DNA of 19,248 nt from a virus (Duplodnaviria; Heunggongvirae; Uroviricota; Caudoviricetes), in the IMG/VR virus record IMGVR_UViG_3300021600_000003, positions 1 through 19,248 of that record; one strand, 5' to 3'. A model generated the notes under the pieces. The model saw only the letters and a list, made by a program, of their open reading frames with translations, did not search any database and was not told the DNA's origin. A program made the position numbers and the translations under genes. How positions within the stretch are numbered: the stretch's first letter is position 1; each line of letters opens with the position of its first letter. Of this stretch, positions 1 through 15,223 are shown one piece after another.

Positions 1-354
1 TGGAGAAGGACGATGCGTTGATATTTTAGCTTCAGGTATTAAAGTTAAAATTGCATCATTAAATAATTTAATAAATTGTATTGGTTGGTCACTAAATACT
101 CTAACAATTATACTAGATTCATTAGTGTAAACTACACCTGAATTCAATACAGATAATAATCTTATATTATCAAAACTAATAGGAATTTTATCTATATTAA
201 TAAATTTATCTAATGAATATTCTCCATGTATTGATAAAGTATCATTATTTGGTTTCATAACTACAATAATAGGTTCTGGAAATGACATTTTTGAACCTAA
301 ATCACTAATAGCTTTTCTTCTAGCAGCAGTTACTATCTCTTTTATTAATCTCAT
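1..354 (-). CDS. Hypothetical protein, partial (118 codons, runs off the left edge; not in the ORF track)
   Basis: Hand translation: ATG at 354-352 directly follows the TAA (357-355) of the upstream gene. MRLIKEIVTAARRKAISDLGSKMSFPEPIIVVMKPNNDTLSIHGEYSLDKF...KISTHRPSP has no stop to base 1. No family recognised. Confidence 0.8.
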   Translation of the reverse strand, partial: MRLIKEIVTAARRKAISDLGSKMSFPEPIIVVMKPNNDTLSIHGEYSLDKFINIDKIPISFDNIRLLSVLNSGVVYTNESSIIVRVFSDQPIQFIKLFNDAILTLIPEAKISTHRPSP

Positions 355-1041
355 TTAGATATAATTTATAATAGATAAAGGATTAAATGTTAAAAGATTT
401 ATTAAGTCACCATCAGGATTACCACTATCACATGTTTGTAATACATTACTAACTGTTATTGTAGGATTACTATATATATTAGTAAATATATTATTACTAT
501 CTGTAGTAGTTCCTAAAGTTATACATAGTGGAGCATATACTGTTTTTAACAAAGAATTTCCATTAAAGCATTCATTACCTATAAAAGTTGTAACAGGAAC
601 ATTTACAGAAACTAGTGCTGTATCATTAAAGAATGTCAAATCTGCAATACTAGTTGCAGCTGGAAGACTTACAGTAGTAAGAAGTGAACATAACCAAAGA
701 GAACCAGATCCAGTACTAGTAATACAATTTGCTGTATCTATAATACTTACTAAATTACCCCCAGTTTTACCAACCTGAAATAGATAATCTCTAAGATGAA
801 TATTACTTCCACCTATTAATTTTACTGTATTTCCTTGTATCATAAGTCTTGTAAAGGGATTTCCATTAGTTGGAAAATCAAAAAAAGTATTCCAAGCTAA
901 AAGACTTGTATAATTAGTTACAAGATTACTTGCATTAGTAATATTATCAAAAGTTAATAGTAAAGCTGGTCCATATGCATAACAATAGCAGTAAGGACCT
1001 GTCATCATATTTATAATATCTTGTGATAATGTCTGAGACAT
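355..1041 (-). CDS. BspA/TpLRR-like leucine-rich-repeat protein, possible virion-surface adhesin
   Basis: C-terminal half has about 2-3 TpLRR-like units (SLPAATSIADLTFFNDTALVSVNVPVTTFIGNECFNGNSLLKTVYAPLCITLG), matching the LP..SIG..AF..C..L..V..P pattern. N-terminal half is Thr/Asn-rich and beta-prone. No signal peptide seen. Confidence 0.6.
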   Translation of the reverse strand: MSQTLSQDIINMMTGPYCYCYAYGPALLLTFDNITNASNLVTNYTSLLAWNTFFDFPTNGNPFTRLMIQGNTVKLIGGSNIHLRDYLFQVGKTGGNLVSIIDTANCITSTGSGSLWLCSLLTTVSLPAATSIADLTFFNDTALVSVNVPVTTFIGNECFNGNSLLKTVYAPLCITLGTTTDSNNIFTNIYSNPTITVSNVLQTCDSGNPDGDLINLLTFNPLSIINYI

Positions 1042-2101: not shown

Positions 2102-2184
2102 TCTTTCATTTTTATGTGTAAGATTTCTTCTACCTGCATACGATTTTTTAGGTTACTATCCAACCATGTTTGTTTAAATGTCAT
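2098..2184 (-). CDS. 28-aa mini-ORF bridging the two GT9-like halves
   Basis: MTFKQTWLDSNLKNRMQVEEILHIKMKE*. Its ATG overlaps the upstream TGA (ATGA at 2184-2181) and its TGA overlaps the downstream ATG (ATGA at 2101-2098). It fills the 79-nt gap exactly. Confidence 0.5.
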   Translation of the reverse strand: MTFKQTWLDSNLKNRMQVEEILHIKMKE

Positions 2185-3197
2185 AGATACATTCTCCTGA
2201 AACCCTCTATAAGATGGATTTTCTCTTTTGTATCCCATAGTAATTTATATACTTGGAAAGGTGTAATATCTCCATATATAGCTTTAGCATCTGCTATAGA
2301 AATAATGTTTAACTCTGGCTCATCCCAAAAGACATCTGGAAAACATGCTGCTATAGTAATATGTTTATGTTTTTCCTTTAATTCTGGTAAGATATTCTTA
2401 AAAGCCCAATGATCTCCAATTCCACAATCTAATATAACCATCTTACTATCTTCCTCAGATACATTCCAAAGTGATAGATAGGCTTTGAATATCTTCTCAT
2501 CATGTTCCCATAATATTGGGTCATTAAATGTACGAATACCTCCTTCTCTAGCTTGGAAGTGATATACCTGAGCATTCATATTTACCATTAATTTATATCC
2601 TGCTCTCTTGAGTGAGTGAGAGAATATAGTCTCTTCACGGTGAGCTACGGTAGATAATGTCAAATCATAGTTCATCAATCCTTTTCTGTATAGAAAACAT
2701 GAATAAAGATGATCTGCTTCGTGAATACCTTCTCCTTTAAACCATTGGATATTAGGTGTTTTTAGGTTATCTATTCTATTTTTGAGTCCTACTGGGAGTG
2801 GCTGAGGATTAGGCATAGTGACAGAAGGAGCAACAGCACCAATCTTCTCGTCCTTAGATATGATTGCATTTAGTTTTCTTAAGGTTTCTGGTTCAGCAAT
2901 ACAATCATCATCGATTCGGAAGACTAATTCTGTCTCAGCACAATCCTGAATCATCTGATGGGAGTGATGCTGACCTTTCTTCACTCCAAATTTAACCTGC
3001 CACTTTATGTTCTTCTCGTCAAATAGACGGAAGATATACTCATAATGTGGAATAGTGGTAAGATTTATTGGCTTATCACTATCATCTACAATAATAACCT
3101 CATATGGAGGTACAGATTGTAACGCAATAGATAAGAGAGTCTTATCCAGACTCTCATATCTATTTTTTGTGGGGATACCGCAAGTGATTTTAGTCAT
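2181..3197 (-). CDS. GT2-family glycosyltransferase fused to a GT9-like N-terminal module
   Basis: GT-A motifs CGIPTKNRYESL, IIVDDS, VFRIDDDC (DxD) and AHREETIFS. The last ~88 aa (KMVILDCGIGDHWAFKNILPELKEKHKHITIAAC) resemble the GIGD start of GT9 acceptor domains. Confidence 0.8.
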   Translation of the reverse strand: MTKITCGIPTKNRYESLDKTLLSIALQSVPPYEVIIVDDSDKPINLTTIPHYEYIFRLFDEKNIKWQVKFGVKKGQHHSHQMIQDCAETELVFRIDDDCIAEPETLRKLNAIISKDEKIGAVAPSVTMPNPQPLPVGLKNRIDNLKTPNIQWFKGEGIHEADHLYSCFLYRKGLMNYDLTLSTVAHREETIFSHSLKRAGYKLMVNMNAQVYHFQAREGGIRTFNDPILWEHDEKIFKAYLSLWNVSEEDSKMVILDCGIGDHWAFKNILPELKEKHKHITIAACFPDVFWDEPELNIISIADAKAIYGDITPFQVYKLLWDTKEKIHLIEGFRRMYL

Positions 3198-3273
3198 TTA
3201 AGTAATTTATTGCATTATATTGCTTCTTCTTGTATTCTAGATTCTTCTGTTTCTTTTCTTCTAACGTTTGCAT
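3190..3273 (-). CDS. Possible 27-aa Lys-rich mini-ORF overlapping the end of the giant enzyme and the start of the next gene
   Basis: MQTLEEKKQKNLEYKKKQYNAINYLND*, preceded by AAAAACAAAT. It starts just after the point where the GT2 domain ends like its sister domains (LKNKY versus LLERY, LLQKY, LYNKY). Confidence 0.25.
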   Translation of the reverse strand: MQTLEEKKQKNLEYKKKQYNAINYLND

Positions 3274-6200
3274 ATTTGTTTTTAAGTAATTGTGTTTTCT
3301 CTTCTGTTCTTTTAGGAGCCATTCCTGTTGATTTCACAGTATAGGTTAATAACTTCTCGGGATTATGGATAAATGAACAACCTAAATCATCTAACCTTAA
3401 CCACATATCCCAATCCTCTATACTATCTAATCTATCATCAAAACGTTGGTGAGATAAAACATGATATCTACACACTACTCCTGATATAAAGATAAAAGGT
3501 GTCTCTAACATTATCTTTCCACCGGGATACTCTAGAGGATCTGGTATACCATACGGAATTGCTTCTTGACCATTATCGAATTGATGTCGAACTGATGAGT
3601 ATATAATATCATTGATGTCGATTTTATTTAACTGTTTCATCATGTAATCTTTATCCCATATATCATCGCTATCACAGAAGGCAATATGTGTAAAATCTCC
3701 ACTTGTTACTTTATTTAATCCCATATTACGAGCAGATGATGGACCACCATTCTCTTTCTCTATAATAGTAATCTTAGGATGACTAGCTAGAATTTTTACT
3801 GCTTTTTGTCTATCTTCACTACCATCATCTATTATAAATAATGTCCAATTAAGGAATGACTGTCCTGTGATTGCTGATACTGACTTTAAAAGATTAGCTT
3901 CATCATTATAATAAGGCATAATTATAGCTACTTTGCTTACATCTAGTAATCCCTTATCTGTTAAATACTGTTGATTTTCTTGTACAAAGATAGGAAAACT
4001 ATGATCAATTTCCCATTTTTTTGTAATTATATTAGAATTTCTTCCAAAATGCTCTCTTCCCTGTGAGATAAGATAATTAATACGAGTACTATCCTTATAC
4101 TCTAAAGTATTTAACTCCTGATGAGCCCATCCTTCTAATTTCTGTATAATAGCTTTACTACCACCCATCCATGAGAAATGCCATCCACCATCAGATATCT
4201 TTTGGTCATTAGACATCTCCTCATATCTTAATCCTGTTAGAGATAATTTTCTTTCTCTTATAAACTTCATTGGAGCTATACGTGAGAAGGTAGAAGGTGC
4301 TATAGTAGAAATACCTACATTATAGTTAAGATAATAACTAAACTGATTCTGCTCAAAGAATTTAGGTTCTTCATAGTTATCAATCTTACTAGCTCTAGGT
4401 ATTTCATCTAAATCAGATACTATAATCATATCCTCATCTTTAGCTATAGGTTCTAGAGCATTTATTATAAAGTCTCTCTGATGATGTTCTCTTACCCAAG
4501 GATCAACAGTTTCTATATTTGGTGGGATAACGATTATAATCTTATCTGACCATTTAGCAAAAAGTTCTAGATTCTCTGATAGATATAATGGTTTAGGCTT
4601 ACCTGAATGAGTTTGTTCCATTTCAGATATGATAAAGTAATCTACCTGATTATATAACTCATTTAATCGTATCTCTAATAAGTCTAACTCATTAAAGAAA
4701 GAAAAACAATCAAATACTTTATAACTTCTTGTTTGTGAGGAAGTTATTAATTGCTTATCTTTATAATATTGTAAGTTATCCTGTACATACTTTGGATGAT
4801 TAGAGAAGTCTATTATCTTAGTAAAGTGTAAATTTCTTCTAAAAATATCTTTACCATTTAATATAGCATCTTCTAAATGTTGGTCATTAGTAAAGTAGTC
4901 ATTATTAAATTCAGAGTGTGAGTAGGCTTGAATCTTCTGTTTAACAGATTTAACATCTCCTAAGAATGAGAAGTGCCATCCACCATTAGGAATAATCATA
5001 TTATATACATAATCATCTTTACCTCTATAACTCTGCATATCCTTTCCAAATAAAGCTGAGAATGGGAAGATACGAGCTTTAAACCATCTCTCCTCTATCT
5101 GCCAATCTAACTTATAGTAGAATAAAGACATCTCAATAGCACATACTCCCATATCTACTTGATACTTCTGTATTACTTCTTTTCTTACTATCTCATCACA
5201 ATCAGACATTATAATAATATCATTAGGCTGATAGTCAGCTAAACCATCCATTATAGCACGTCTCTGATAATGTTCTCTATCCCAAGTAGATGTACAATTA
5301 GGAAATTCATGTAGTAATATATAATGTACCTTATCTGCTTTATCTCCTAGAGATTTCCAGTCAAAATACATTGGTTTTGCATTCCCTTGATGGTCAAATA
5401 ATGATTCTACCACAACAAACTTATCTACTACATCATATAATTCCTCTACACGCATCTTAAATAACTCTACTTCATTATAGAAAATGCATGTATCAATTAC
5501 TTTACCTCTAGGGATAGGTTGTTTAAACCATTTCTTATAACGATTTTCAGGTAATACATACCAGATATTAGCTCCACTAAACACATTTTCCCTTCCAAAT
5601 AAGTCATATAAGGCAGGTGCTACACTATCATTCCACTGAATATCATGACCAGTAATCAGACATCCATCCTTAACTTTTGGAAGCCAAGCTTTTACATCTC
5701 TTTGAACTCCCTCATAACGATGGTCAGCATCTATGAATACTAAATCACAAGATTTATCATTAAATAAGAAAGCAGAATCTGCACTATCCATAGGATATAT
5801 CTTAACATAATCTGTTAATCCAAATCTCTCAATATTGTCTTTAAAGATTTGAAGTAAGTCCATACCTTTTACTTGTGCACCATCTTCCATTTCCCAAGGT
5901 GAACCTTTAAATGTATCAATAGCATGTACTTGTATATTCTTCTCTTTGATTATTTCTGCAGCAGAACATAATGAACGTCCCATCCATACACCAATTTCAG
6001 CCATTACTCCTCCATCTGGAATTCTTCTAATTAATTCTTTATAGAATGCTTGATCATCCCATCCAAACCATCCTCCGGGTAATTCTTTCTCTAGATAAAC
6101 ACCATACTTATTATATAAGTGATGAACATATTGTTCTAAACGTTGTTTGGATTGACCATATAATGGAGCAAATGTACCACCACCTATATGCATAATAGGA

Positions 6201-9088
6201 AAACTACCAACTCTACTAGAGTCTCCCTGATTTTCATGATTGTAATTAATATCCTCTGGAGTCTCTACTAATTTGAATCCTGCTTGTTGTGCACGAATAC
6301 AAAAGTCAACATCTTCATGATAACCTTCTCCAAATATTTCATCAAGTAAACCTATTTCCTTAAAGACTTCTCTTTTAATCATAACACACCAAAATAACAT
6401 ATATTCTGCACGTACATCATCTCTCCAAGCTTTCATAGGTCCAACAATACCTACATTATCTACAAAACGAGTTAGTAGTAACTTAATCCATTGATCCTTT
6501 TCTTGAGGACGTAATTCTACATCATTATTTAGAAGAATAATAAATTCACCCATACTTTCCTTTATACCTGCATTAGTAGCTTTGATAAAACCTACTCTTT
6601 GATCTATCCAGTATAACTTAAAAGGATTACCTAGTGAGTAAACATACTCCCGTGTGGCGTCAGTACAACCATTAGCTACTATAATTACCTCAATCTCTGT
6701 TAAGTCTGTATATCTCTGAATAGAAGCAATACAACCTTTAAGTAAATCTAGATTATTATATGTAGGAATTACTATAGATATACGAGGCTTTGTAGGATAT
6801 TTCTGTAGAAGAGAGGTCTTTTTAGTAGAATCCCAAGTAGATATTCCTATTAATTTATTCTTCTCTAGAGAAAATGTCATGGCATCTTTATGGATAAGAG
6901 GAAATTCTCTCCATAGTTGATTAGGATTATTTGATAGATATTCTTTGGTTAGACTTAAGTCATCTTTTCTATCGGTAGGAACTTGTACTAACTTATATCC
7001 TAACTTCTTTACACGAATAGCAAAGTCTATATCTTCCTCATATCCCATTCCAAAATCTTCATCCAATAAACCAACTTTATCTATAATAGCTCGGGTTGTC
7101 ATAGCACAAAAGAATACCATATACTCTTCTCTAAAGGTTAATACATTATCATCCCAAAAGAATCTCCAATCTTTATATGGACCAGTTATACCTACATTAG
7201 TACCTTCTATAAATGGCTTTTTCAAGATATTAAGCCATGTAGATTTAAGTACCTCAGTATCATTGTTTAAAAAAACAATATACTTACCTATAGCAGCTCT
7301 TATTCCTGCATTGGTAGCCTTAATAAAGCCTACAGGTTCATCTATCCATATTAACTTAAATGTACCTCCTAGACTATCTACATATTGTTTAGTGTCATCA
7401 GTGCATCCATTAGCTACAACTATAACTTCAACATTACTTAAATCTGTAGTGTTTATAATACTTTGAAGACATGATTTAAGACAGTCTTCTAAATGGTTAT
7501 ATGTGGGTATAATTATTGATACGTCTTTCACAGGGTCTGTTTTTTCTAATTTAAAAGGGGTATATCTAAACATAGAAATACCTTTTCTCATTTCAGGATT
7601 AGGACTTTCATATGCAGATATTAGTTGCATATCAGGTTTATACTCATAAAAGAAACGAGTTACACCTTCACATGCTATGTGGTCATGATAAGCAAAGATA
7701 GCTCCATCTGCAGCATACTTCTTAGCTAATTCTGTATCCTTAACTACGTCTTCGTACTCGTGCCCAGCATCTATAAAGATAAAGTCGAACTTTTTACCTT
7801 CAAGAAATTTTTCTACTTCTGGAGCATGACTATCCCCACGGTAAATATCTATCTTTCCAGTATTCTGACAGTTTAGAAGATTCTGACGATAGTTTAGAGG
7901 ATAGTTCATATCAGCCCAGCCAATATCTATAGTAGTAATATCTTTAACCTGAACTACATCACAGAATATACGTGTTACTCCACCATCAGCTACTCCTATC
8001 TCTAGATAGTGTTCTACCTTTAAATCTCTGCAGTCAAATAAGTATTCTGATAATTCATCTATATCTTGCTGTAGACAATATCCACCTTGAAATCTTCCAC
8101 CAAATTGGTAGAGATTTTTACTTCCTGCACTTAATACAAATTCTCTTATACTCTCAAGAGAAGATATATCACAAAGATTTTCATTTCTGTTAAGAAGGGG
8201 AGTACCATCTTTCCCAATAAATATACCATTAGCAAATCCACCTCTAGAGAGAGCCATACGTGTTCTATTATCTATGGTAGATGTCATTTTTCCATCCTCT
8301 GCCAAATGAGCAGTAATCTTATCTAGACGAGGAATAACTTCCCAACTATTAACTGTGTCAAGTAAGTTACCTATCTCTATATGTTTAGCTTTATCTTTAT
8401 ACCTCTCGAGAAGAATAGCTTCATTCCTTGGAACAACTTGTGACCATTCAGGTACCTCATTTACTGTGACTGACCCTTTATGCCATATAGGAAATTGTAA
8501 GATATGTTCATCAGTTGGACGAACAGTTGTAAGAGATATCTCATTTGGTACCTGAACTATCTTATAACCAAGCTGTTTTAATTTATGACAAAAGTCTATA
8601 TCTTCTCCATATCCGGGATTAAAGATTGGATCAATTCCTCCAACTCTTTCTAAGATATCTCTTCTAGTCATTGAACAGAAGAATAATATAAACTCACTCT
8701 CTGTTTCTTTATGATAGTTTTTAGCTGCTCCTGTTATACCTACTTCATTATCCAATAAAAAAGGAGCTTCTAGCATTTCCAGCCAGTTAGCTCCCATTAT
8801 CTGTAAATCATTATTTAATAAAATTATGTATTCTCCCTTACTAACCTCAATACCCATATTTGTAGCATTAGTAAAACCCAATGCTCTATCTACAGATATA
8901 GAAAATATATTAGGATATCTTTTATGTAATTCATAAATATAAGATAGAGTACCATCATCACTACAACCATTAGCTACTACAATTATCTCAACATCTTGTA
9001 AATCAGTATGTTGTATAATACTTTCTAAACATGGTTTTAGGCAATCCTCAAAATGCTTATATGTAGGTATAATTATTGAATACTTCAT
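3215..9088 (-). CDS. 1957-aa eight-module glycosyltransferase/methyltransferase (GT2-MT-GT2-GT2-MT-GT17-GT17-GT2)
   Basis: Three GT2 modules with SII(I/V)PTY, IVVANGC, (L/F)LNND and Y(G/E/H)EDxDF motifs. Two Methyltransf_24-like modules (LEIGVADGG..FIDAGHEYEDV..YHDH; AEIGVWMGRS..FIDADHRYEGV..GHDI). Two GT17-like modules (F(Y/F)NE..R..ELY..VD.F, RE..QR, SD(C/L)DEI, GGWHFS(F/W)). One canonical C-terminal GT2 (IMPYYN, IIDDGS, ARNMG, FCDSDD, EDWDMWLR). No signal peptide or obvious TM helix. Confidence 0.92.
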   Translation of the reverse strand: MKYSIIIPTYKHFEDCLKPCLESIIQHTDLQDVEIIVVANGCSDDGTLSYIYELHKRYPNIFSISVDRALGFTNATNMGIEVSKGEYIILLNNDLQIMGANWLEMLEAPFLLDNEVGITGAAKNYHKETESEFILFFCSMTRRDILERVGGIDPIFNPGYGEDIDFCHKLKQLGYKIVQVPNEISLTTVRPTDEHILQFPIWHKGSVTVNEVPEWSQVVPRNEAILLERYKDKAKHIEIGNLLDTVNSWEVIPRLDKITAHLAEDGKMTSTIDNRTRMALSRGGFANGIFIGKDGTPLLNRNENLCDISSLESIREFVLSAGSKNLYQFGGRFQGGYCLQQDIDELSEYLFDCRDLKVEHYLEIGVADGGVTRIFCDVVQVKDITTIDIGWADMNYPLNYRQNLLNCQNTGKIDIYRGDSHAPEVEKFLEGKKFDFIFIDAGHEYEDVVKDTELAKKYAADGAIFAYHDHIACEGVTRFFYEYKPDMQLISAYESPNPEMRKGISMFRYTPFKLEKTDPVKDVSIIIPTYNHLEDCLKSCLQSIINTTDLSNVEVIVVANGCTDDTKQYVDSLGGTFKLIWIDEPVGFIKATNAGIRAAIGKYIVFLNNDTEVLKSTWLNILKKPFIEGTNVGITGPYKDWRFFWDDNVLTFREEYMVFFCAMTTRAIIDKVGLLDEDFGMGYEEDIDFAIRVKKLGYKLVQVPTDRKDDLSLTKEYLSNNPNQLWREFPLIHKDAMTFSLEKNKLIGISTWDSTKKTSLLQKYPTKPRISIVIPTYNNLDLLKGCIASIQRYTDLTEIEVIIVANGCTDATREYVYSLGNPFKLYWIDQRVGFIKATNAGIKESMGEFIILLNNDVELRPQEKDQWIKLLLTRFVDNVGIVGPMKAWRDDVRAEYMLFWCVMIKREVFKEIGLLDEIFGEGYHEDVDFCIRAQQAGFKLVETPEDINYNHENQGDSSRVGSFPIMHIGGGTFAPLYGQSKQRLEQYVHHLYNKYGVYLEKELPGGWFGWDDQAFYKELIRRIPDGGVMAEIGVWMGRSLCSAAEIIKEKNIQVHAIDTFKGSPWEMEDGAQVKGMDLLQIFKDNIERFGLTDYVKIYPMDSADSAFLFNDKSCDLVFIDADHRYEGVQRDVKAWLPKVKDGCLITGHDIQWNDSVAPALYDLFGRENVFSGANIWYVLPENRYKKWFKQPIPRGKVIDTCIFYNEVELFKMRVEELYDVVDKFVVVESLFDHQGNAKPMYFDWKSLGDKADKVHYILLHEFPNCTSTWDREHYQRRAIMDGLADYQPNDIIIMSDCDEIVRKEVIQKYQVDMGVCAIEMSLFYYKLDWQIEERWFKARIFPFSALFGKDMQSYRGKDDYVYNMIIPNGGWHFSFLGDVKSVKQKIQAYSHSEFNNDYFTNDQHLEDAILNGKDIFRRNLHFTKIIDFSNHPKYVQDNLQYYKDKQLITSSQTRSYKVFDCFSFFNELDLLEIRLNELYNQVDYFIISEMEQTHSGKPKPLYLSENLELFAKWSDKIIIVIPPNIETVDPWVREHHQRDFIINALEPIAKDEDMIIVSDLDEIPRASKIDNYEEPKFFEQNQFSYYLNYNVGISTIAPSTFSRIAPMKFIRERKLSLTGLRYEEMSNDQKISDGGWHFSWMGGSKAIIQKLEGWAHQELNTLEYKDSTRINYLISQGREHFGRNSNIITKKWEIDHSFPIFVQENQQYLTDKGLLDVSKVAIIMPYYNDEANLLKSVSAITGQSFLNWTLFIIDDGSEDRQKAVKILASHPKITIIEKENGGPSSARNMGLNKVTSGDFTHIAFCDSDDIWDKDYMMKQLNKIDINDIIYSSVRHQFDNGQEAIPYGIPDPLEYPGGKIMLETPFIFISGVVCRYHVLSHQRFDDRLDSIEDWDMWLRLDDLGCSFIHNPEKLLTYTVKSTGMAPKRTEEKTQLLKNKYANVRRKETEESRIQEEAI
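3270..3935 (-). other. Module 8: canonical GT2 domain
   Basis: VAIIMPYYN, FIIDDGSED, ENGGPSSARNMGL, IAFCDSDD, IEDWDMWLRL. Confidence 0.88.
3950..5505 (-). other. Modules 6 and 7: tandem GT17 (MGAT3/GnT-III-like) domains
   Basis: IDTCIFYNEVELFKMRVEELYDVVDKFVVVES..WDREHYQR..SDCDEI..GGWHFSFLG..KQKIQAYSHSE (about 5505-4750) and VFDCFSFFNELDLLEIRLNELYNQVDYFIISE..WVREHHQR..SDLDEIPR..GGWHFSWMG..QKLEGWAHQE (about 4723-3950). Confidence 0.85.
5555..6090 (-). other. Module 5: class I SAM methyltransferase (Methyltransf_24-like)
   Basis: MAEIGVWMGRS, AIDTFKGS, PMDSADSA, LVFIDADHRYEGVQRDVKAWLPKVKDG, GHD. Confidence 0.88.
6105..7525 (-). other. Modules 3 and 4: tandem GT2 domains (ANGC/LNND type)
   Basis: VSIIIPTYNH..IVVANGCTDD..VFLNND..YEEDIDF (about 7525-6795) and ISIVIPTYNN..IIVANGCTDA..ILLNND..YHEDVDF (about 6785-6105). 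Confidence 0.85.
7550..8130 (-). other. Module 2: class I SAM methyltransferase (Methyltransf_24-like)
   Basis: YLEIGVADGG (motif I), TTID, RGDS, FDFIFIDAGHEYEDVVKD, YHD. Boundaries approximate. Confidence 0.85.
8400..9088 (-). other. Module 1: GT2 domain (ANGC/LNND type)
   Basis: YSIIIPTYKH, IVVANGCSDDG, ILLNND, GYGEDIDFC. Boundaries approximate. Confidence 0.85.
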
Positions 9089-9103: not shown

Positions 9104-9135
9104 CAAAGATATAGTATATAGTAATATCTTCCAAA
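9104..9135 (-). promoter_or_regulatory. Bacteroidota housekeeping-sigma-type promoter upstream of the giant enzyme
   Basis: Minus strand reads TTTG (9135-9132), a 20-nt spacer, then TATCTTTG (9111-9104), an exact match to TTTG-N19-21-TAnnTTTG. It sits in the 48-nt intergenic gap and ends 15 nt before the ATG. Confidence 0.75.
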
Positions 9136-9136
9136 T

Positions 9137-9748
9137 TTATTTTACTTGTATAACTCCTATACCTGCCCAATCTGCAGTATTATCTAAAAACTCTTTCTTA
9201 TCTCCTTCTAACTCTTTCCAGAAACGATGTACCTCACAACTATAATCCTTATGAGTTTTTGTTTCTTTGATATCATGCATACCTATATATCCACCTTTTT
9301 TAACAAAAGGAAGATAATTATAGTAATCTGCCTTTACACCCTCATAAGAATGGTCTGCATCAATAAATATAAAATCTAATTTATCTTCTCCTAATTTCTC
9401 CTTAACCCAATCTATAGATACTTTCTCTTTTGTATCATTGAATAGAACATGACAGTTTGGAGCAAATGTCTCAAACATATGCTTATTTTGTTCAATCTCT
9501 CTATCAGTTCTTACATGACCTACTCCCCATGGTCCATTAGGTAAATCTATACCCAACTTAATTCCTCCGGGAGTAGCTATTGAACACCATACATAAAAGC
9601 TGCCACCCTGACATAATCCTAATTCAAGAAAGTTTTTAGGTTGTACTATCTTATCAACAAATTCCATAAAAGGAATAATCTCGTTAGGTAATTGTAATAA
9701 AGCTCCTGTTGTTAGAGCTGCTGTATTTGCTATTGCTTGATAGTTCAT
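9137..9748 (-). CDS. Stand-alone class I SAM-dependent methyltransferase (Methyltransf_24-like), probably a sugar O-methyltransferase
   Basis: FLELGLCQGGSF, LGID, LDFIFIDADHSYEGVKADY..FVKKGGYIGMHDI, VHRFWKEL, WAGIGVI. Same FIDAxHxYExV signature as the two MT modules of the giant enzyme. The sugar substrate is inferred from context. Confidence 0.88.
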   Translation of the reverse strand: MNYQAIANTAALTTGALLQLPNEIIPFMEFVDKIVQPKNFLELGLCQGGSFYVWCSIATPGGIKLGIDLPNGPWGVGHVRTDREIEQNKHMFETFAPNCHVLFNDTKEKVSIDWVKEKLGEDKLDFIFIDADHSYEGVKADYYNYLPFVKKGGYIGMHDIKETKTHKDYSCEVHRFWKELEGDKKEFLDNTADWAGIGVIQVK

Positions 9749-10575: not shown

Positions 10576-13500
10576 TTACATTGCTGTTAATAATATCCAA
10601 GGTTTTCTTAAACCTAGTGCTATATCATTATATACAAATCCAGTAGCTGTACTAGCAACACTTGTTACTACAGCATTTGTTGTAGCATTACTATGACCCC
10701 AATAAGGAACCATAGCATTATTAAGTCCTGCTACACTTGCTACAGTTGTTGAGCCAGCTATATTAACAGTACCTGCAGCACTACTCATACCATATAAAGT
10801 AGCTGCTAAGTTTCCTCCTGTTAAGAAAACATAACCAAACCACCATTCTCCGGGAGTTAAGCTAACATTAGATGCTATTTGATAATATCTTATTGAAGAA
10901 TATCCACCCCACTGAGTAGCTACAGTTGATAAGTTACTTGATGCTGCATTACTTGACCATGACCAAGTTCCTGTAGCTGCACTAGCAAGAGATAATGTAT
11001 TAGCATTTTTAGTATAAAATCCTGCATATAAAGAGAAACCAGCTGTTACGTTAGTTGTTTGTGAAGCATTTAACATGAACTTCAAAGCTGTAGCATTTAT
11101 ATTTCCATCTACATAGAATGGAACAGCAAAGAATGAACCATGAGTAATACCACCATTAGGAAAAGGAACACCTTGGAATGGTTCAAATAAATTATATGTA
11201 GGTGCACCTGTACCACTATAACCAGAATATCCAGTATAACCACTATAACCACTATAGCCAGTGTATCCTGAGTAGCCAGAAATACCACTGTATCCTGAGT
11301 AACCACTAAATCCTGAATAACCACTAAATCCTGAACTACCTGTTGCACCACCACTGTACCCACTATATCCAGTATAACCAGAATATCCAGAAGGTCCACT
11401 ATATCCACTATAGCCACTTAATCCAGTATAACCAGAATATCCAGAAGGTCCACTATATCCAGAGTATCCTGAGATACCTGAATAACCACTAAAGCCACTA
11501 GTACCATTTCCTCCACCACTATAGCCACTATAACCTGTATATCCACTATATCCACTTATACCTGAGTATCCTGAATAACCAGAAATACCTGAGTACGCAC
11601 TATAACCAGAGTATCCAGAAGAACCACTATACCCACTATAACCACTAGAACCAGAATAACCACTAAATCCAGAAGAACCAGTACCACCTCCACTATAACC
11701 AGAATATCCTGTATAACCAGAGTAACCTGATAGACCTGAGTACCCACTAAATCCTGATATACCTGTATAACCAGAATAGCCTGAATTTCCTGAGTACCCA
11801 CTAAATCCACTACTTCCTGCTCCACCACCTGAATAACCTGAATAACCAGTAAAGCCTGAATAACCACTTATTCCACTATAACCACTGTACCCAGATAGAC
11901 CACTGTATGCAGAATAACCACTGTATCCTGACAGTCCACTATATCCACTAAATCCTGAACTACCAGCTCCTCCACCACTATATCCTGAGTAACCAGTATA
12001 TCCACTGTATCCACTTAATCCACTGTAACCAGAGAAACCACTTATACCAATATAACCACTGTATCCTGAGTTTCCTATGAATCCAGAGTAACCTGATAAA
12101 CCAGAATATCCACTATAACCACTCAATCCACTATATGCAGAATAACCAGATAATCCTGAATAAGCACTATAGCCACTTAATCCACTATAGCCACTAAAAC
12201 CACTACTACTAGAGTAACCACTATATCCTGTGTAACCACTGAATCCACTAGAACTGCTATAGCCTGAATATCCAGTGTATCCAGAGTAACCTGTATATCC
12301 TGAGTATCCGCTATAACCCGTATAACCACTATAACCACTTTTACCACTATATGCAGAGTATCCTGTATATCCTGAATAACCACTTATACCGCTATATGCT
12401 GAATAACCACTTATTCCTGAATAACCTGAGAACCCTGAAATACCACTATAAGCTGAATAACCTGTATATCCAGAGTAACCACTTAAACCAGAGTAAGCAG
12501 AATAACCTGATAGACCACTGTAAGCTGAATATCCACTGTAACCAGATATTCCAGTATAACCTGAATATCCTGAAGTACCTATATAACCTGAATATCCTGA
12601 ATAGGCTGAGTAACCACTAATTCCAATATATCCACTATATCCACTTTCACCAGCTAATGTAACAGATACTGATATATTTTGATTGTTGGTAAATGTACCT
12701 CCACCTGTAACATATGTTACTGTATAACCATCATATAATGGAGAACCTGCACTTCCAAGATTTACATCTATATGCCAAATATGTGCTTTAGATAAATCAC
12801 TAGGATCAAATATCATAAAATGATCACCGGGACCAAGACTATCTAAGAAAGCATCCATTGGTAAACTAAACCTATCTAGTTCAGATAGATTAATTTGTGT
12901 AGTAGATGAATAAGTAACAGGATCACTAAAGTTTATAAATCCAGCTGCAGGATTTCCTCCAGTAGAATTACTCCATTGATAATCTAGAGTAAATCCTCCA
13001 ACATTTCCACTAAATCCTGAGTTTCCTGAGTATCCTGAGTATCCACTTATTCCAGTATAACCACTATAACCACTAGTTCCTATGAAACCACTATATCCAG
13101 AATATCCACTAATACCACTTCCTGAGTAACCAGAATAACCAGTATAACCCGAATAACCACTGTATCCAGTATATCCTGAGTAGCCACTCTTTCCAGAGTA
13201 ACCAGAGTATCCACTAATACCAGAGTAACCTGAGTAGCCTGTATAACCACTAAAGCCACTAATACCTGAATAGGCTGAGTAACCACTATACCCACTTATA
13301 CCACTTCCGCTATAACCTGAATATCCACTCAAACCTGAGTATGCAGAATAACCACTAAATCCTGATTGACCACTATAACCACTATAACCAGAAGAACTAC
13401 TATAACCTGAATAACCTGATGAACTACTATAACCACTATACCCTGTATATCCAGAATATCCCGAATAACCAGTATAACCACTGTAACCACTCTTTCCACT

Positions 13501-14910
13501 GTAGGCAGAATAACCTGAAATACCTGAGTAGGCAGAATAACCTGACAATCCAGAATAAGCTGAGTAACCAGATAGTCCTGAATAACCAGAGAAACCAGAT
13601 AGTCCACTATATCCTGAATACCCTGTGTAACCACTGAATCCTGATAAACCTGAATATGCAGAGTATCCACTTAGTCCAGAGTATGCAGAGTATCCTGATA
13701 AACCACTATATGCTGAATATCCTGATATACCAATAAAGCCACTATATCCACTTATTCCACTATAAGCTGAGTAACCAGATACACCACTTCCTGAATAACC
13801 ACTATATCCAGAACGTCCTGAATATGCTGAATAGCCACTGTAACCACTAGTACCAATAAATCCACTGTATCCACTAGTACCTACTGTTGCTGTACCATCA
13901 TAACCACTCCATCCAGAACGTCCACTATATCCACTATAACCTGATGCTGCTGAACCATTTACAACAAATCTTCCAGCAAAACGTTTATCAGGAGTTCCTA
14001 AAACTGTAACTCTTACAACATTAGAAGAAATTTCTTCTACTAAATATGGAGTTACAAGGAAAGGAGTAGATGTCATATCCCATATATCTACAACTAAATT
14101 GAAAGAGTTTAGATTATGAGTAAAATCTATATAGTAATTTCCTCCAGAGGAAACCCAGTCTACTAGAGAAAATACTTGACTCCAAGCTACAGATCCACTT
14201 CCACTATATCCAGAAAAACCACTACTTCCTATTCCACTGTAACCACTATAACCACTAATACCTATTGGTCCAATATAACCACTGTAACCACTTAATCCTA
14301 ATCCACTATAACCTGACCAGCCACTCAAACCACTGCCACTATAACCAGAGTACCCAGTCCAACCACTTTTGCCACTATATCCACTATATCCAGTTCTCCC
14401 ACTTATACCACTATAGGCTGAGTATCCACTAATACCTAGTCCACTATATCCACTCCAACCTGATATACCACTACCACTATAACCAGAATAACCACTATCT
14501 CCACTGTAAGCTGAGTATCCACTCTCTCCTGAATATGCAGAATAACCTGATAACCCCGAGTAGGCAGAATAACCACTTGCACCTAAATAACCACTGTAAC
14601 TAGAGTAGCCACTCTTACCTGAATAGGCTGAGTAACCTGACAATCCTATACCAGAGTAACCACTTATACCCCTTCCAGAATAGCCCGAGAATCCAGAGAA
14701 GACAGCATCACCATCTCTTCCAGAATAACCAGAGTAACCAGATTTTCCATCTATACCATCTGATCCTTGTGCTTGATTACAAATCTTATTTAAAATCGAA
14801 GTGAGTGACTCACCTTTTGTAGTAGGGACACATAACTTTCCCGGACAGTCATCGACTATCTGGGATATACCTATTTCAGGATCAGTGACTACTATGTATT
14901 TCTTATCCAT
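10576..14910 (-). CDS. 1444-aa (Gly-Tyr-Ser)n repeat fibre-like protein, probable tail/head fibre or receptor-binding protein
   Basis: Cys-containing N-terminal cap and three Gly-X-Ser triplet blocks. A FTHNL..VVD.WD small beta domain and a GGFTLDYQW..NPAAG domain separate the blocks; both resemble spacer domains I recall from collagen-repeat phage fibres. Ends in a ~205-aa beta-rich domain (VPFYV..YAGFY..LTPGEWWFG). The virion role is inferred. Confidence 0.75.
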   Translation of the reverse strand: MDKKYIVVTDPEIGISQIVDDCPGKLCVPTTKGESLTSILNKICNQAQGSDGIDGKSGYSGYSGRDGDAVFSGFSGYSGRGISGYSGIGLSGYSAYSGKSGYSSYSGYLGASGYSAYSGLSGYSAYSGESGYSAYSGDSGYSGYSGSGISGWSGYSGLGISGYSAYSGISGRTGYSGYSGKSGWTGYSGYSGSGLSGWSGYSGLGLSGYSGYIGPIGISGYSGYSGIGSSGFSGYSGSGSVAWSQVFSLVDWVSSGGNYYIDFTHNLNSFNLVVDIWDMTSTPFLVTPYLVEEISSNVVRVTVLGTPDKRFAGRFVVNGSAASGYSGYSGRSGWSGYDGTATVGTSGYSGFIGTSGYSGYSAYSGRSGYSGYSGSGVSGYSAYSGISGYSGFIGISGYSAYSGLSGYSAYSGLSGYSAYSGLSGFSGYTGYSGYSGLSGFSGYSGLSGYSAYSGLSGYSAYSGISGYSAYSGKSGYSGYTGYSGYSGYTGYSGYSSSSGYSGYSSSSGYSGYSGQSGFSGYSAYSGLSGYSGYSGSGISGYSGYSAYSGISGFSGYTGYSGYSGISGYSGYSGKSGYSGYTGYSGYSGYTGYSGYSGSGISGYSGYSGFIGTSGYSGYTGISGYSGYSGNSGFSGNVGGFTLDYQWSNSTGGNPAAGFINFSDPVTYSSTTQINLSELDRFSLPMDAFLDSLGPGDHFMIFDPSDLSKAHIWHIDVNLGSAGSPLYDGYTVTYVTGGGTFTNNQNISVSVTLAGESGYSGYIGISGYSAYSGYSGYIGTSGYSGYTGISGYSGYSAYSGLSGYSAYSGLSGYSGYTGYSAYSGISGFSGYSGISGYSAYSGISGYSGYTGYSAYSGKSGYSGYTGYSGYSGYTGYSGYTGYSGYSSSSGFSGYTGYSGYSSSSGFSGYSGLSGYSAYSGLSGYSAYSGLSGYSGYSGLSGYSGFIGNSGYSGYIGISGFSGYSGLSGYSGYTGYSGYSGGGAGSSGFSGYSGLSGYSGYSAYSGLSGYSGYSGISGYSGFTGYSGYSGGGAGSSGFSGYSGNSGYSGYTGISGFSGYSGLSGYSGYTGYSGYSGGGTGSSGFSGYSGSSGYSGYSGSSGYSGYSAYSGISGYSGYSGISGYSGYTGYSGYSGGGNGTSGFSGYSGISGYSGYSGPSGYSGYTGLSGYSGYSGPSGYSGYTGYSGYSGGATGSSGFSGYSGFSGYSGYSGISGYSGYTGYSGYSGYTGYSGYSGTGAPTYNLFEPFQGVPFPNGGITHGSFFAVPFYVDGNINATALKFMLNASQTTNVTAGFSLYAGFYTKNANTLSLASAATGTWSWSSNAASSNLSTVATQWGGYSSIRYYQIASNVSLTPGEWWFGYVFLTGGNLAATLYGMSSAAGTVNIAGSTTVASVAGLNNAMVPYWGHSNATTNAVVTSVASTATGFVYNDIALGLRKPWILLTAM
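11205..12653 (-). repeat. GYS triplet repeat block 3 (about 483 aa)
   Basis: Longest block. Its distal part holds five TGYSGYS-GG(G/A)X-G(S/T)SGFSGYSG higher-order units. Confidence 0.95.
13005..13945 (-). repeat. GYS triplet repeat block 2 (about 313 aa)
   Basis: Recurrent SGYSAYSGL and SGYTGY units and YSSSSG substitutions. Confidence 0.95.
14195..14750 (-). repeat. GYS triplet repeat block 1 (about 185 aa)
   Basis: SGYSGYSG..SGYSAYSGLSGYSAYSGES.. with frequent G-X-G interruptions (SGRGIS, SGIGLS, SGSGIS, SGLGIS). Confidence 0.95.
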
Positions 14911-14986: not shown

Positions 14987-15223
14987 CTAATCCAAATCTA
15001 TCTTTTCATCAATTATCTCCATCTCAGGAATCTCAGGAATATCCTCAACTTCTAATCTTCCTTGAGACATTCTATGAGAAAATGGGTCCTCTATAAAGGT
15101 ACCCAAATCATCTGCTATACAGTTTTGAAAAAATTCATCTACATTCTTTTCCTCTAGTTGAAAGTAGTACTCATATGTTGAGATATAAATAACCTTTCCT
15201 GTGGGTAATGATATATTAGGCAT
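14987..15223 (-). CDS. Small acidic hypothetical phage protein
   Basis: 78 aa (LPTGKVIYISTYEY..DEFFQ..IEDPF) with an acidic tail. The ATG overlaps the upstream stop (TAATG, 15225-15221). It resembles from memory a small LPxGKxIxIS protein of Bacteroidota phages; this is unverified. Confidence 0.75.
   Translation of the reverse strand: MPNISLPTGKVIYISTYEYYFQLEEKNVDEFFQNCIADDLGTFIEDPFSHRMSQGRLEVEDIPEIPEMEIIDEKIDLD

Follow-up and report, generated by a model that had tools for sequence, protein, structure and literature searches.

A predicted eight-module glycosyltransferase and methyltransferase enzyme encoded beside a Gly-Tyr-Ser collagen-like fibre in a distant crAss-like phage

The window analyzed here, 19,248 nucleotides at the left end of one IMG/VR virus record of 129,865 bp (IMGVR_UViG_3300021600_000003; 32.5% GC, CheckV completeness 90%), encodes on its minus strand, at positions 3215 to 9088, a soluble protein of 1957 amino acids that carries eight catalytic modules on one chain (P0001, hereafter the mega-enzyme). 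Six of the modules belong to glycosyltransferase (GT) families and two to a methyltransferase (MT) family, and it is very probable that the protein is a genuine multi-catalytic enzyme of both predicted activities. Its gene lies close to that of a collagen-like fibre built of Gly-Tyr-Ser triplets, and we assign a probability of roughly 0.55 to the reading that the enzyme cluster sugar-coats this neighboring fibre in the host cytoplasm with methylated O-glycans. That the fibre would be the acceptor, as its genomic context suggests, appears slightly more probable than this reading taken as a whole.

The mega-enzyme is encoded by a single open reading frame (ORF) that begins with ATG and runs for 5874 nucleotides without an internal stop. 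Pfam searches with the whole chain and with eight slices of it identified the module order GT2-MT24-GT2-GT2-MT24-GT17-GT17-GT2, where MT24 denotes Methyltransf_24, with all eight matches exceeding the curated gathering cut-offs (PF00535, 23.3 bits; PF04724, 26; PF13578, 26.3). The order proposed earlier in a sequence-only reading of this DNA, namely one 1957-residue chain arranged GT2-MT-GT2-GT2-MT-GT17-GT17-GT2, is thus exact. The chain opens with GT2a (residues 1-235; positions 8384 to 9088, minus strand as for all modules), whose Glycos_transf_2 match at residues 4-125 scores 75 bits and which bears the motifs LLNND(94) and GYGED(163)I. It is followed, at positions 7544 to 8383, by a small alpha/beta subdomain (residues ~234-330) and the first methyltransferase, MTa, with a Methyltransf_24 core at residues ~362-469 (50 bits) and the motifs LEIGxAxGG, DAxH and HDH. 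Two further GT2 modules come next: GT2b (residues 521-765; positions 6794 to 7528), matched at 524-634 with 81 bits and showing LNND(610) and GYEED(686)ID, and GT2c (residues 771-1005; positions 6074 to 6778), matched at 776-898 with 59 bits and showing LNxD(856) and GYHED(926)VD. The second methyltransferase, MTb (residues 1011-1185; positions 5534 to 6058), matches Methyltransf_24 at 1031-1150 with 84 bits. The two Glyco_transf_17 modules are GT17a (residues 1186-1445; positions 4754 to 5533), with a match at 1186-1417 (102 bits) and the motifs SD(1296)xD(1298)E and GGWHxSF, and GT17b (residues 1453-1712; positions 3953 to 4732), with a match at 1453-1681 (98 bits) and the motifs SD(1559)LD(1561)EIP and GGWHFSWMGG. 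The chain closes with GT2d (residues 1718-1952; positions 3233 to 3937), a Glycos_transf_2 match at 1722-1843 (80 bits) with DDGS (1754-1757), DSDD (1806-1809) and EDW (1891-1893). GT2a, GT2b and GT2c are mutual paralogues with 37-48% identity (42% between GT2a and GT2b, 48% between GT2b and GT2c) and GT2d represents a distinct GT2 lineage, while the two GT17 modules share 31% identity and the two methyltransferases 28%.

Conservation of the catalytic motifs was assessed on an alignment of seven full-length relatives (alignment A1; 55-66% identity by best BLASTP alignment, 57-65% over the full length), in which every canonical motif is invariant among the relatives bearing the respective module (seven relatives, or five for MTb). 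GT2d retains the canonical DDGS, DSDD and EDW in all seven. The invariant motifs of GT2a-c are a variant N-N-D, in which only the last Asp is kept (LLNND), and GYxED(I/V)D, and we infer that the N-N-D variant may serve the metal- or donor-binding role. SDxDE and GGWHFS are invariant in both GT17 modules, and the S-adenosylmethionine (SAM) motif E-I-G-x-x-x-G and D-x-D/G-H are kept in both methyltransferases, so that no module looks decayed. The same eight-module order is found in four independent metagenomic orthologues of 55-58% identity (P0002, P0003, P0005 and P0007), and P0004 and P0006 are seven-module relatives that lack MTb alone; in addition, the IMG/VR record behind locus L010 matches residues 2-1943 at 57% identity. 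Together, the eight-module orthologues, the seven-module P0004 and L010 come from at least six assemblies or samples (SRR31616087, GCA_040364335.1, ERZ27258478, SRR9852168, SRR22808009 and the L010 record). That separate genes were joined here by misassembly or sequencing error is therefore excluded for practical purposes, being contradicted both by the stop-free frame and by the identical order in independent orthologues, and its probability is negligible.

Structure prediction is in agreement with the profile searches. AlphaFold2 models of the two halves of the chain, built with alignments of orthologues and module fragments, have a mean pLDDT (predicted local distance difference test score) of 87.9 for residues 1-1010 and 92.1 for residues 1011-1957, with GT17a above 90 and the GT2 modules above 85. 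All eight domains expected by the sequence-only reading from a scan for GT2, GT17 and Methyltransf_24 profiles are therefore both above cut-off and confidently folded. The short linkers it had described are also borne out: linkers between modules measure 5-16 residues, and the low-confidence segments (513-517, 741-756, 1004-1010 and 1186-1192) are confined to them. The subdomain between GT2a and MTa (residues ~234-330) is likewise confidently folded, and a Pfam search with residues 196-360 gave no match. Since the pTM (predicted TM-score) of both halves is merely 0.53-0.58, the mega-enzyme is best pictured as well-folded beads on a string, the mutual arrangement of which the models do not fix.

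Structural superimposition using VIA-align places GT2a, GT2b and GT2d in the GT-A fold, with Z scores of 20-25 to SpsA, TarP, RmlT, AvpGT and polypeptide GalNAc-transferases (ppGalNAc-T). The best match of GT2a is ppGalNAc-T2 (Z score of 20.5 and rmsd of 2.5 over 212 aligned residues), near-tied with other GT-A enzymes. GT2b matches 6p61, a Leptospira GT2 (Z 22.6), WrtF (Z 21) and TarP (Z 19), and GT2d matches AvpGT (Z 25.1), WrtF (Z 24.2) and CgT (PDB identifier 5hea; Z 24.0), the last of these being among the best sequence and structure matches of both GT2a and GT2d. The structural matches of GT2c are limited to tandem alignments with K4CP. MTb matches the mycobacterial sugar O-methyltransferase MeT1 (6g80) with a Z score of 19.6 and rmsd of 2.7 over 179 aligned residues, and its sequence matches 6g7d with an E-value of 3.5e-4. 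A sequence search for relatives of the GT17 modules with a solved structure found none. The founding member of GT17, MGAT3, transfers GlcNAc in beta-1,4 linkage to beta-mannose; the GT17 modules of the mega-enzyme are assigned to the family by profile and motif. Profile, fold and motifs together assign the modules to the GT2, GT17 and Methyltransf_24 families, and as the GT-A matches are near-tied, they establish the fold but not the class of acceptor. Thus, a single chain of eight folded modules with intact motifs makes a multi-step glycan-building and methylating enzyme well founded.

The proposed acceptor, which the sequence-only reading had not named, is a collagen-like fibre of 1444 amino acids (P0121; positions 10576 to 14910, minus strand) with ~600 residues in strict G-X-Y runs. 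The X position of its triplets is mostly Tyr (119 of those counted) and the Y position mostly Ser (155), and there is almost no Pro. Two non-collagen inserts (~245-330 and ~690-800) and a globular C-terminal domain of roughly 250 amino acids complete the protein, which is the sole G-X-Y protein of the genome and its most Ser/Thr-rich ORF (29%). The repeat has a higher-order period of GYS-GYS-GxS, at times with Ala or Ser in place of Gly, and GYSGYSGYS is never present in spite of the 119 Gly-Tyr-X triplets. In the proline-poor cuticle collagen of Riftia, galactosylated threonine has a stabilizing role, which by analogy suggests that a proline-free Gly-Tyr-Ser helix may need sugars for its structure.

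The genomic linkage between mega-enzymes and Gly-[Tyr/Phe]-Ser fibres is seen from both directions. In the forward direction, among loci of mega-enzyme relatives gathered by exact protein look-up and by a scan of IMG/VR, 10 of 14 distinct viral loci have a Gly-[Tyr/Phe]-Ser collagen-like protein at most 10 kb away from the mega-enzyme. In the reverse direction, viral stretches were retrieved with a degenerate DNA pattern for (G-Y-S)2-G-x-S-(G-Y-S)2 and, as control, for (G-P-x)5, and modules were called in their short flanks with hidden Markov models (HMMs) built from the mega-enzyme. Modules occur in 24 of 120 Gly-Tyr-Ser stretches, drawn from at least 120 in IMG/VR, as against 3 of 118 Gly-Pro-X controls of similar total length, an eightfold difference (odds ratio 9.6; Fisher p = 1.8e-5). 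Collagen-type repeats of the Gly-Tyr-Ser kind are widespread in IMG/VR (at least 120 stretches), several giant-virus metagenome-assembled contigs (GVMAG) included.

Several observations weigh against fibre glycosylation. It is from gene linkage alone that the fibre is taken as the acceptor, and the loci used in the association tests are not phylogenetically independent. Four of the 14 mega-enzyme loci have no Gly-Tyr-Ser protein in the available flank, several of these loci being truncated, and conversely ~80% of the Gly-Tyr-Ser loci have no module in their short flanks. The control set is also more GC-rich (0.49 versus 0.41). The matches to ppGalNAc-T and CgT, which would suit a protein acceptor, differ little in score from those to GT2 enzymes of the teichoic-acid, polysaccharide and lipid-linked kinds. 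Finally, HMM searches of the phage record found no TIGR04414 or PF01075 (TibC/GT9 heptosyltransferase) match, so that an initiating enzyme of this type is lacking here. The four loci without a visible Gly-Tyr-Ser gene, together with the late structural context of the gene and the precedent of glycosylated capsids and tail tubes (Freeman 2023, as cited in PMC12619734), would fit a general virion glycan shield, in which capsid, tail or other virion proteins are glycosylated and the collagen-like neighbor is not the main acceptor. We consider this unlikely as the principal role, given the bidirectional association with Gly-[Tyr/Phe]-Ser proteins and the kept order of fibre, 264-residue GT-like and MT24 genes (found in full here and in locus L028), and it is compatible with glycosylation of the fibre.

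The genes around the mega-enzyme follow one another on the minus strand, in the order of transcription a 2087-residue protein (15223-21486), the fibre, a 264-residue GT-like protein, a 203-residue MT24 protein, the mega-enzyme, a 338-residue GT2 and a 157-residue GT9-like protein. The 264-residue protein (P0122; 9750 to 10544) is a distant GT-A-like protein with weak PHROG glycosyltransferase matches and a language-model (Atlas) feature score of 0.98 to phage GT-A clusters, and its gene directly follows the fibre gene both here and in L028. The stand-alone 203-residue protein (9137 to 9748) resembles Methyltransf_24 and rhamnosyl-O-methyltransferases. The succession of fibre, GT-like protein of 262-264 residues and MT24 of ~200 residues recurs in full in L028, and in L007 the pair of 264-residue and MT24 genes recurs with an upstream protein that runs off the locus. 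Downstream of the mega-enzyme, the stand-alone 338-residue GT2 (2181 to 3197) weakly resembles exopolysaccharide (EPS) glycosyltransferases, and a GT2 of ~340 residues occupies this place in all orthologous loci. The 157-residue protein (1628 to 2101) is a half-size GT9-like, heptosyltransferase-family protein by its language-model (Atlas) feature score of 0.96 and a TM of its predicted structure of 0.91 to phage GT9 mini-proteins, and has no match in Pfam or NCBIfam HMM searches; proteins of 151-162 residues that follow the stand-alone GT2 in orthologous loci are likened to it by length alone. A 169-residue ORF (1048-1557) was considered as the missing half of the GT9-like protein and rejected, as it is not that half. 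Counting modules and neighbors together, the locus encodes approximately nine glycosyltransferase-type domains and three methyltransferases.

Some further features were noted in this region. A truncated first ORF (1-354, minus strand) is weakly similar to the C-terminal domain found in Gly-Xaa-Xaa repeat proteins (NF033147, E-value of 0.033), and a Ser/Thr-rich protein of 228 residues (355-1041, minus strand) has a sub-threshold match to the BspA-type LRR_5; the two may be additional components of fibres or adhesins belonging to this block. In the 312-nt gap between the 2087-residue protein and fibre genes, an apparent small acidic ORF (~14990-15222, minus strand), which is below the ORF length cut-off and was read by eye, begins with MPNISLPTGKV. 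A scan for sigma-70 promoters and terminators performed no better than shuffles. A Bacteroidetes-type promoter-like box, TTTG-N20-TATCTTTG, is located at 9104-9135 (minus strand) in the 48-nt gap that precedes the mega-enzyme, 16 nt before its ATG. It is the sole match in the window, yet 85 of 200 shuffles contain one, and thus it is not significant alone; the box could be an internal promoter of the enzyme genes.

The record encodes a portal (phrog_6547), TerL (phrog_6681), rIIA/rIIB and a DNA polymerase, and contains CrAss_Ring_1 at 33 bits, above the Pfam cut-off; no terminal repeat was found in its 129,865 bp. Based on the presence of CrAss_Ring_1, portal and terminase, the genome is that of a distant crAss-like phage, and the contig of one orthologue carries both CrAss_Ring_1 and CrAss_Ring_2. 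All ORFs from 1 to ~81 kb lie on the minus strand, the genes at 1-21486 are tightly spaced, and the mega-enzyme stands at the distal end of a block of giant virion or injected-protein genes, a late virion block. Every GT2 domain of the genome sits in the mega-enzyme cluster.

This setting bears on the question of whether the cluster might instead remodel the envelope of the host, altering lipopolysaccharide, capsule or S-layer glycans, so that receptors are masked against superinfection or progeny are released more easily. The GT2 modules do match teichoic-acid and polysaccharide enzymes (TarP, RmlT, heparosan and chondroitin synthases), the EPS-like resemblance of the stand-alone GT2 points the same way, and serotype-changing phage glycosyltransferases are well known (reviewed in PMC12619734). 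However, no transmembrane or hydrophobic segment was found in the mega-enzyme chain, in any other GT or MT protein of the cluster or in the fibre, and searches of the phage record revealed no Bac_transf (initiating phosphoglycosyl transferase) and no ligase or polymerase of the Wzy_C/O-antigen-ligase type. The gene is also part of the late virion block of a lytic-type phage and not of a lysogeny module, and its linkage is specifically to Ser-rich collagen fibres. Envelope remodeling therefore seems improbable to us, about as much so as the general virion shield. Much further down the scale is DNA hypermodification, in which the modules would attach or extend glycans on modified phage bases and thereby evade restriction: viral glycosyltransferases are known to hypermodify DNA with a variety of glycans (Pyle 2024, as cited in PMC12619734), but no thymidylate-synthase-like hydroxymethylase was found in the record, the gene is placed among virion and not replication genes, and the linkage to fibres would be left unexplained. 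In view of the lack of membrane segments, lipid-carrier enzymes and a DNA-base hydroxymethylase, direct O-glycosylation and methylation of the fibre in the cytoplasm is the best reading.

The reading frame, folds, motifs, conserved architecture, phage origin and fibre linkage are observed directly; in the scheme that we propose from them, the acceptor, the sugars used, the sequence of steps and the purpose of the coat are inferred. The mega-enzyme would be a soluble, late-expressed multi-enzyme whose six glycosyltransferase modules (three paralogous GT2, one distinct GT2 and two GT17) and two SAM-dependent sugar O-methyltransferase modules act with the partners encoded alongside, viz., the 264-residue GT-A-like protein, the 203-residue MT24, the 338-residue GT2 and the half-size GT9-like protein. 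Donors would be nucleotide sugars of the host and SAM, taken from the host cytoplasm; a search of the phage record for a sugar epimerase or dehydratase gave no match. The first sugar may be placed on Ser by a GT-A enzyme, either the conserved 264-residue protein or the N-terminal GT2a-type module, the fold of which most resembles ppGalNAc-transferases. Chain extension would then fall to the remaining GT2 and GT17 modules, and certain sugars would be O-methylated by the MT24 modules, either as decoration or as a chain-terminating cap. In this manner, methylated O-linked glycans would be built directly on serines, and possibly also on Thr or Tyr, of the adjoining proline-free Gly-Tyr-Ser fibre, before or during virion assembly. 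Fusion of the modules perhaps holds their activities at a stoichiometric ratio and in proximity while a highly repetitive substrate is modified, and the resulting glycan coat may stabilize, solubilize or shield the fibre, or tune adsorption.

The mega-enzyme belongs to a large family. A protein search retrieved at least 481 relatives of 1076-3425 amino acids and, as weak evidence, none of 3426-5000 amino acids at E <= 1e-50. The best 120 of the 481, annotated with the module HMMs, display 53 distinct architectures with 4-11 assigned modules; seventeen have eight modules and nine have more, and P0009 (2997 residues) has 12 if an FkbM methyltransferase and one more GT2-like domain are included. 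To our knowledge, the multi-domain glycosyltransferases described so far have at most two to four predicted domains (PBCV-1 A064R, WsaE and Tupanvirus R496). The sequence-only reading was thus right that eight modules exceed the characterized enzymes, but among its natural relatives the mega-enzyme is not the extreme. In 115 of the 120 relatives the chain starts with a module of the GT2a/b/c type, 23 of 32 MTb-type methyltransferases have GT17 as the next module, and GT17-GT2d forms the C-terminus of 12 relatives. A maximum-likelihood tree of GT2a/b/c-type modules has starred clades for GT2a and GT2b and a weaker one for GT2c, and in the relatives P0008-P0011 (2050-3000 residues) the GT2b orthologue comes first and that of GT2a second, the reverse of the order in P0001. 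The tree and the architectures together indicate that the modules are old paralogues, with insertions, losses and changes of order in their history.

The largest versions (2400-3000 residues, 10-12 modules) are encoded on viral records of 170-494 kb (G003, G004, G006 and G007), in which no match to crAss ring, crAss TerL or NCLDV (nucleocytoplasmic large DNA virus) capsid families was found; thus, the family spans at least two viral lineages. Two or three Gly-[Tyr/Phe]-Ser proteins are encoded at several loci of the 10-12-module versions. One locus (L009:19752-23691, plus strand) adds genes for an NDP-sugar epimerase/dehydratase, an RmlD-like reductase, a nucleotidyltransferase and an extra methyltransferase. 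In a seven-module relative, a BCS1_N/AAA ATPase and a 2-oxoglutarate- and Fe(II)-dependent oxygenase (PF13532) are encoded between the mega-enzyme and the stand-alone GT2 (L028:15124-16796, plus strand); glycosylation of collagen by Mimivirus L230 depends on hydroxylation, which this oxygenase, beside a collagen-like fibre and glycosyltransferases, recalls. Among the 80 best cellular loci from ~186,000 bacterial and archaeal species genomes, scanned with two peptide patterns, only single-domain relatives are seen, often in adjoining separate genes, and hence the fusion looks phage-typical within this limited two-pattern sample. A literature search found no description of this phage multi-enzyme family, which is weak evidence as its coverage was incomplete.

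The order of domains had been suggested to encode the sequence of the glycan, and comparison among homologues gives a divided answer: the order is unchanged in orthologues with as little as 55% identity, but GT2a and GT2b are swapped in P0008-P0011. Retention of the order, recurring cassettes such as the MTb-type methyltransferase followed by GT17, and the precedent of A064R, which acts in the order D1, D2, D3 (PMC9614988), speak for strict colinearity. The swapped GT2 modules of the larger relatives and the example of WsaE, in which the N-terminal methyltransferase acts last (PMC2943079), speak against it, and we regard strict colinearity as doubtful. A further speculation, and a slim prospect, is that the family represents phage-specific combinatorial glycan synthetases, in which exchange of cassettes (GT2-MT24-GT17, GT17-GT2d) would allow order and content to program glycan sequence and methylation on serine-collagen fibres, as a template-like, colinear carbohydrate assembly line in the style of nonribosomal peptide synthetases, for quick diversification of the surface.

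If the fibre is indeed glycosylated, virion O-glycosylation would reach beyond actinobacteriophages and giant viruses and take in crAss-like and very large phages, with a bearing on the adsorption, stability and immune recognition of abundant phages. What is new is that phages have a populous family of proteins, with 4-12 catalytic modules on each chain, that is tied to proline-free Gly-Tyr-Ser collagen-like fibres. With a glycosylated fibre, the natural series of 7-, 8- and 12-module variants and of permuted orders would offer a tractable system for relating domain order to glycan sequence, and the modules would provide a parts list for glyco-engineering.

Among known systems, the two precedents to which the mega-enzyme had been compared were rightly described, since WsaE of Geobacillus stearothermophilus consists of an N-terminal methyltransferase and two rhamnosyltransferase domains (PMC2943079) and A064R of PBCV-1 has three domains (PMC9614988). 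A064R combines a beta-Rha-transferase, an alpha-Rha-transferase and a 2-O-methyltransferase that act in that order (PMC9614988), and A111/114R has three glycosyltransferase functions (PMC7826918). The mega-enzyme resembles these chlorovirus proteins in being virus-encoded and soluble and in uniting several GT-A-type domains with a sugar O-methyltransferase on one chain; the chlorovirus proteins assemble glycans of virion proteins without the endoplasmic reticulum or Golgi of the host or lipid carriers (PMC9614988, PMC7826918), as is proposed here for the mega-enzyme. However, the chlorovirus proteins have three domains (638 amino acids), come from eukaryotic viruses and build N-linked capsid glycans. 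A064R is also without GT17 modules, and its likeness to the mega-enzyme is functional, a kinship not being demonstrated by sequence. WsaE similarly joins soluble MT and GT domains on one chain, and its product is a glycan with a methyl cap that ends up on a surface protein (PMC2943079). Unlike what is proposed for the mega-enzyme, WsaE extends a lipid-linked glycan, with Wzm/Wzt serving for the export of this glycan and the oligosaccharyltransferase WsaB for its transfer, and the domains of WsaE are not colinear with their order of action. With neither Bac_transf nor Wzy_C in the phage record and no transmembrane protein in the cluster, the mega-enzyme is, by the available tests of sequence, not a lipid-linked system of the WsaE or O-antigen type; since host enzymes could substitute, the missing genes lower the probability of lipid-linked assembly and do not exclude it.

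As to the fibre, the collagen-like BclA of Bacillus anthracis carries an oligosaccharide of 2-O-methylated anthrose and rhamnose (PMC6222408). BclA and serine-rich adhesins of the Fap1 type are, like the phage fibre, repetitive Ser/Thr-rich or collagen-like surface fibres, and bear multi-sugar, partly methylated O-glycans made by soluble transferases (CgT/GalT1, PDB identifier 5hea); their enzymes, in contrast to the mega-enzyme, are separate bacterial proteins, and the phage fibre is of the Gly-Tyr-Ser and not the Gly-Pro-Thr type. In fibre glycosylation of the TibC/Aah type (BAHT), a TIGR04414/GT9 heptosyltransferase is encoded next to the fibre, whereas here there is just the half-size GT9-like protein of 157 residues. 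Mycobacteriophages of the Che8/Corndog type offer a precedent for phage glycosyltransferases that decorate their own virion proteins, though according to the account of Freeman 2023 in PMC12619734 these enzymes are single-domain and their acceptors are the C-termini of capsid and tail-tube proteins. What sets the present case apart is the eight-module fusion, the shuffled GT2/GT17/MT24 family of up to 12 modules and the crAss-like genome that hosts it, and by analogy with A064R and WsaE, the mega-enzyme may work as these multi-domain enzymes do.

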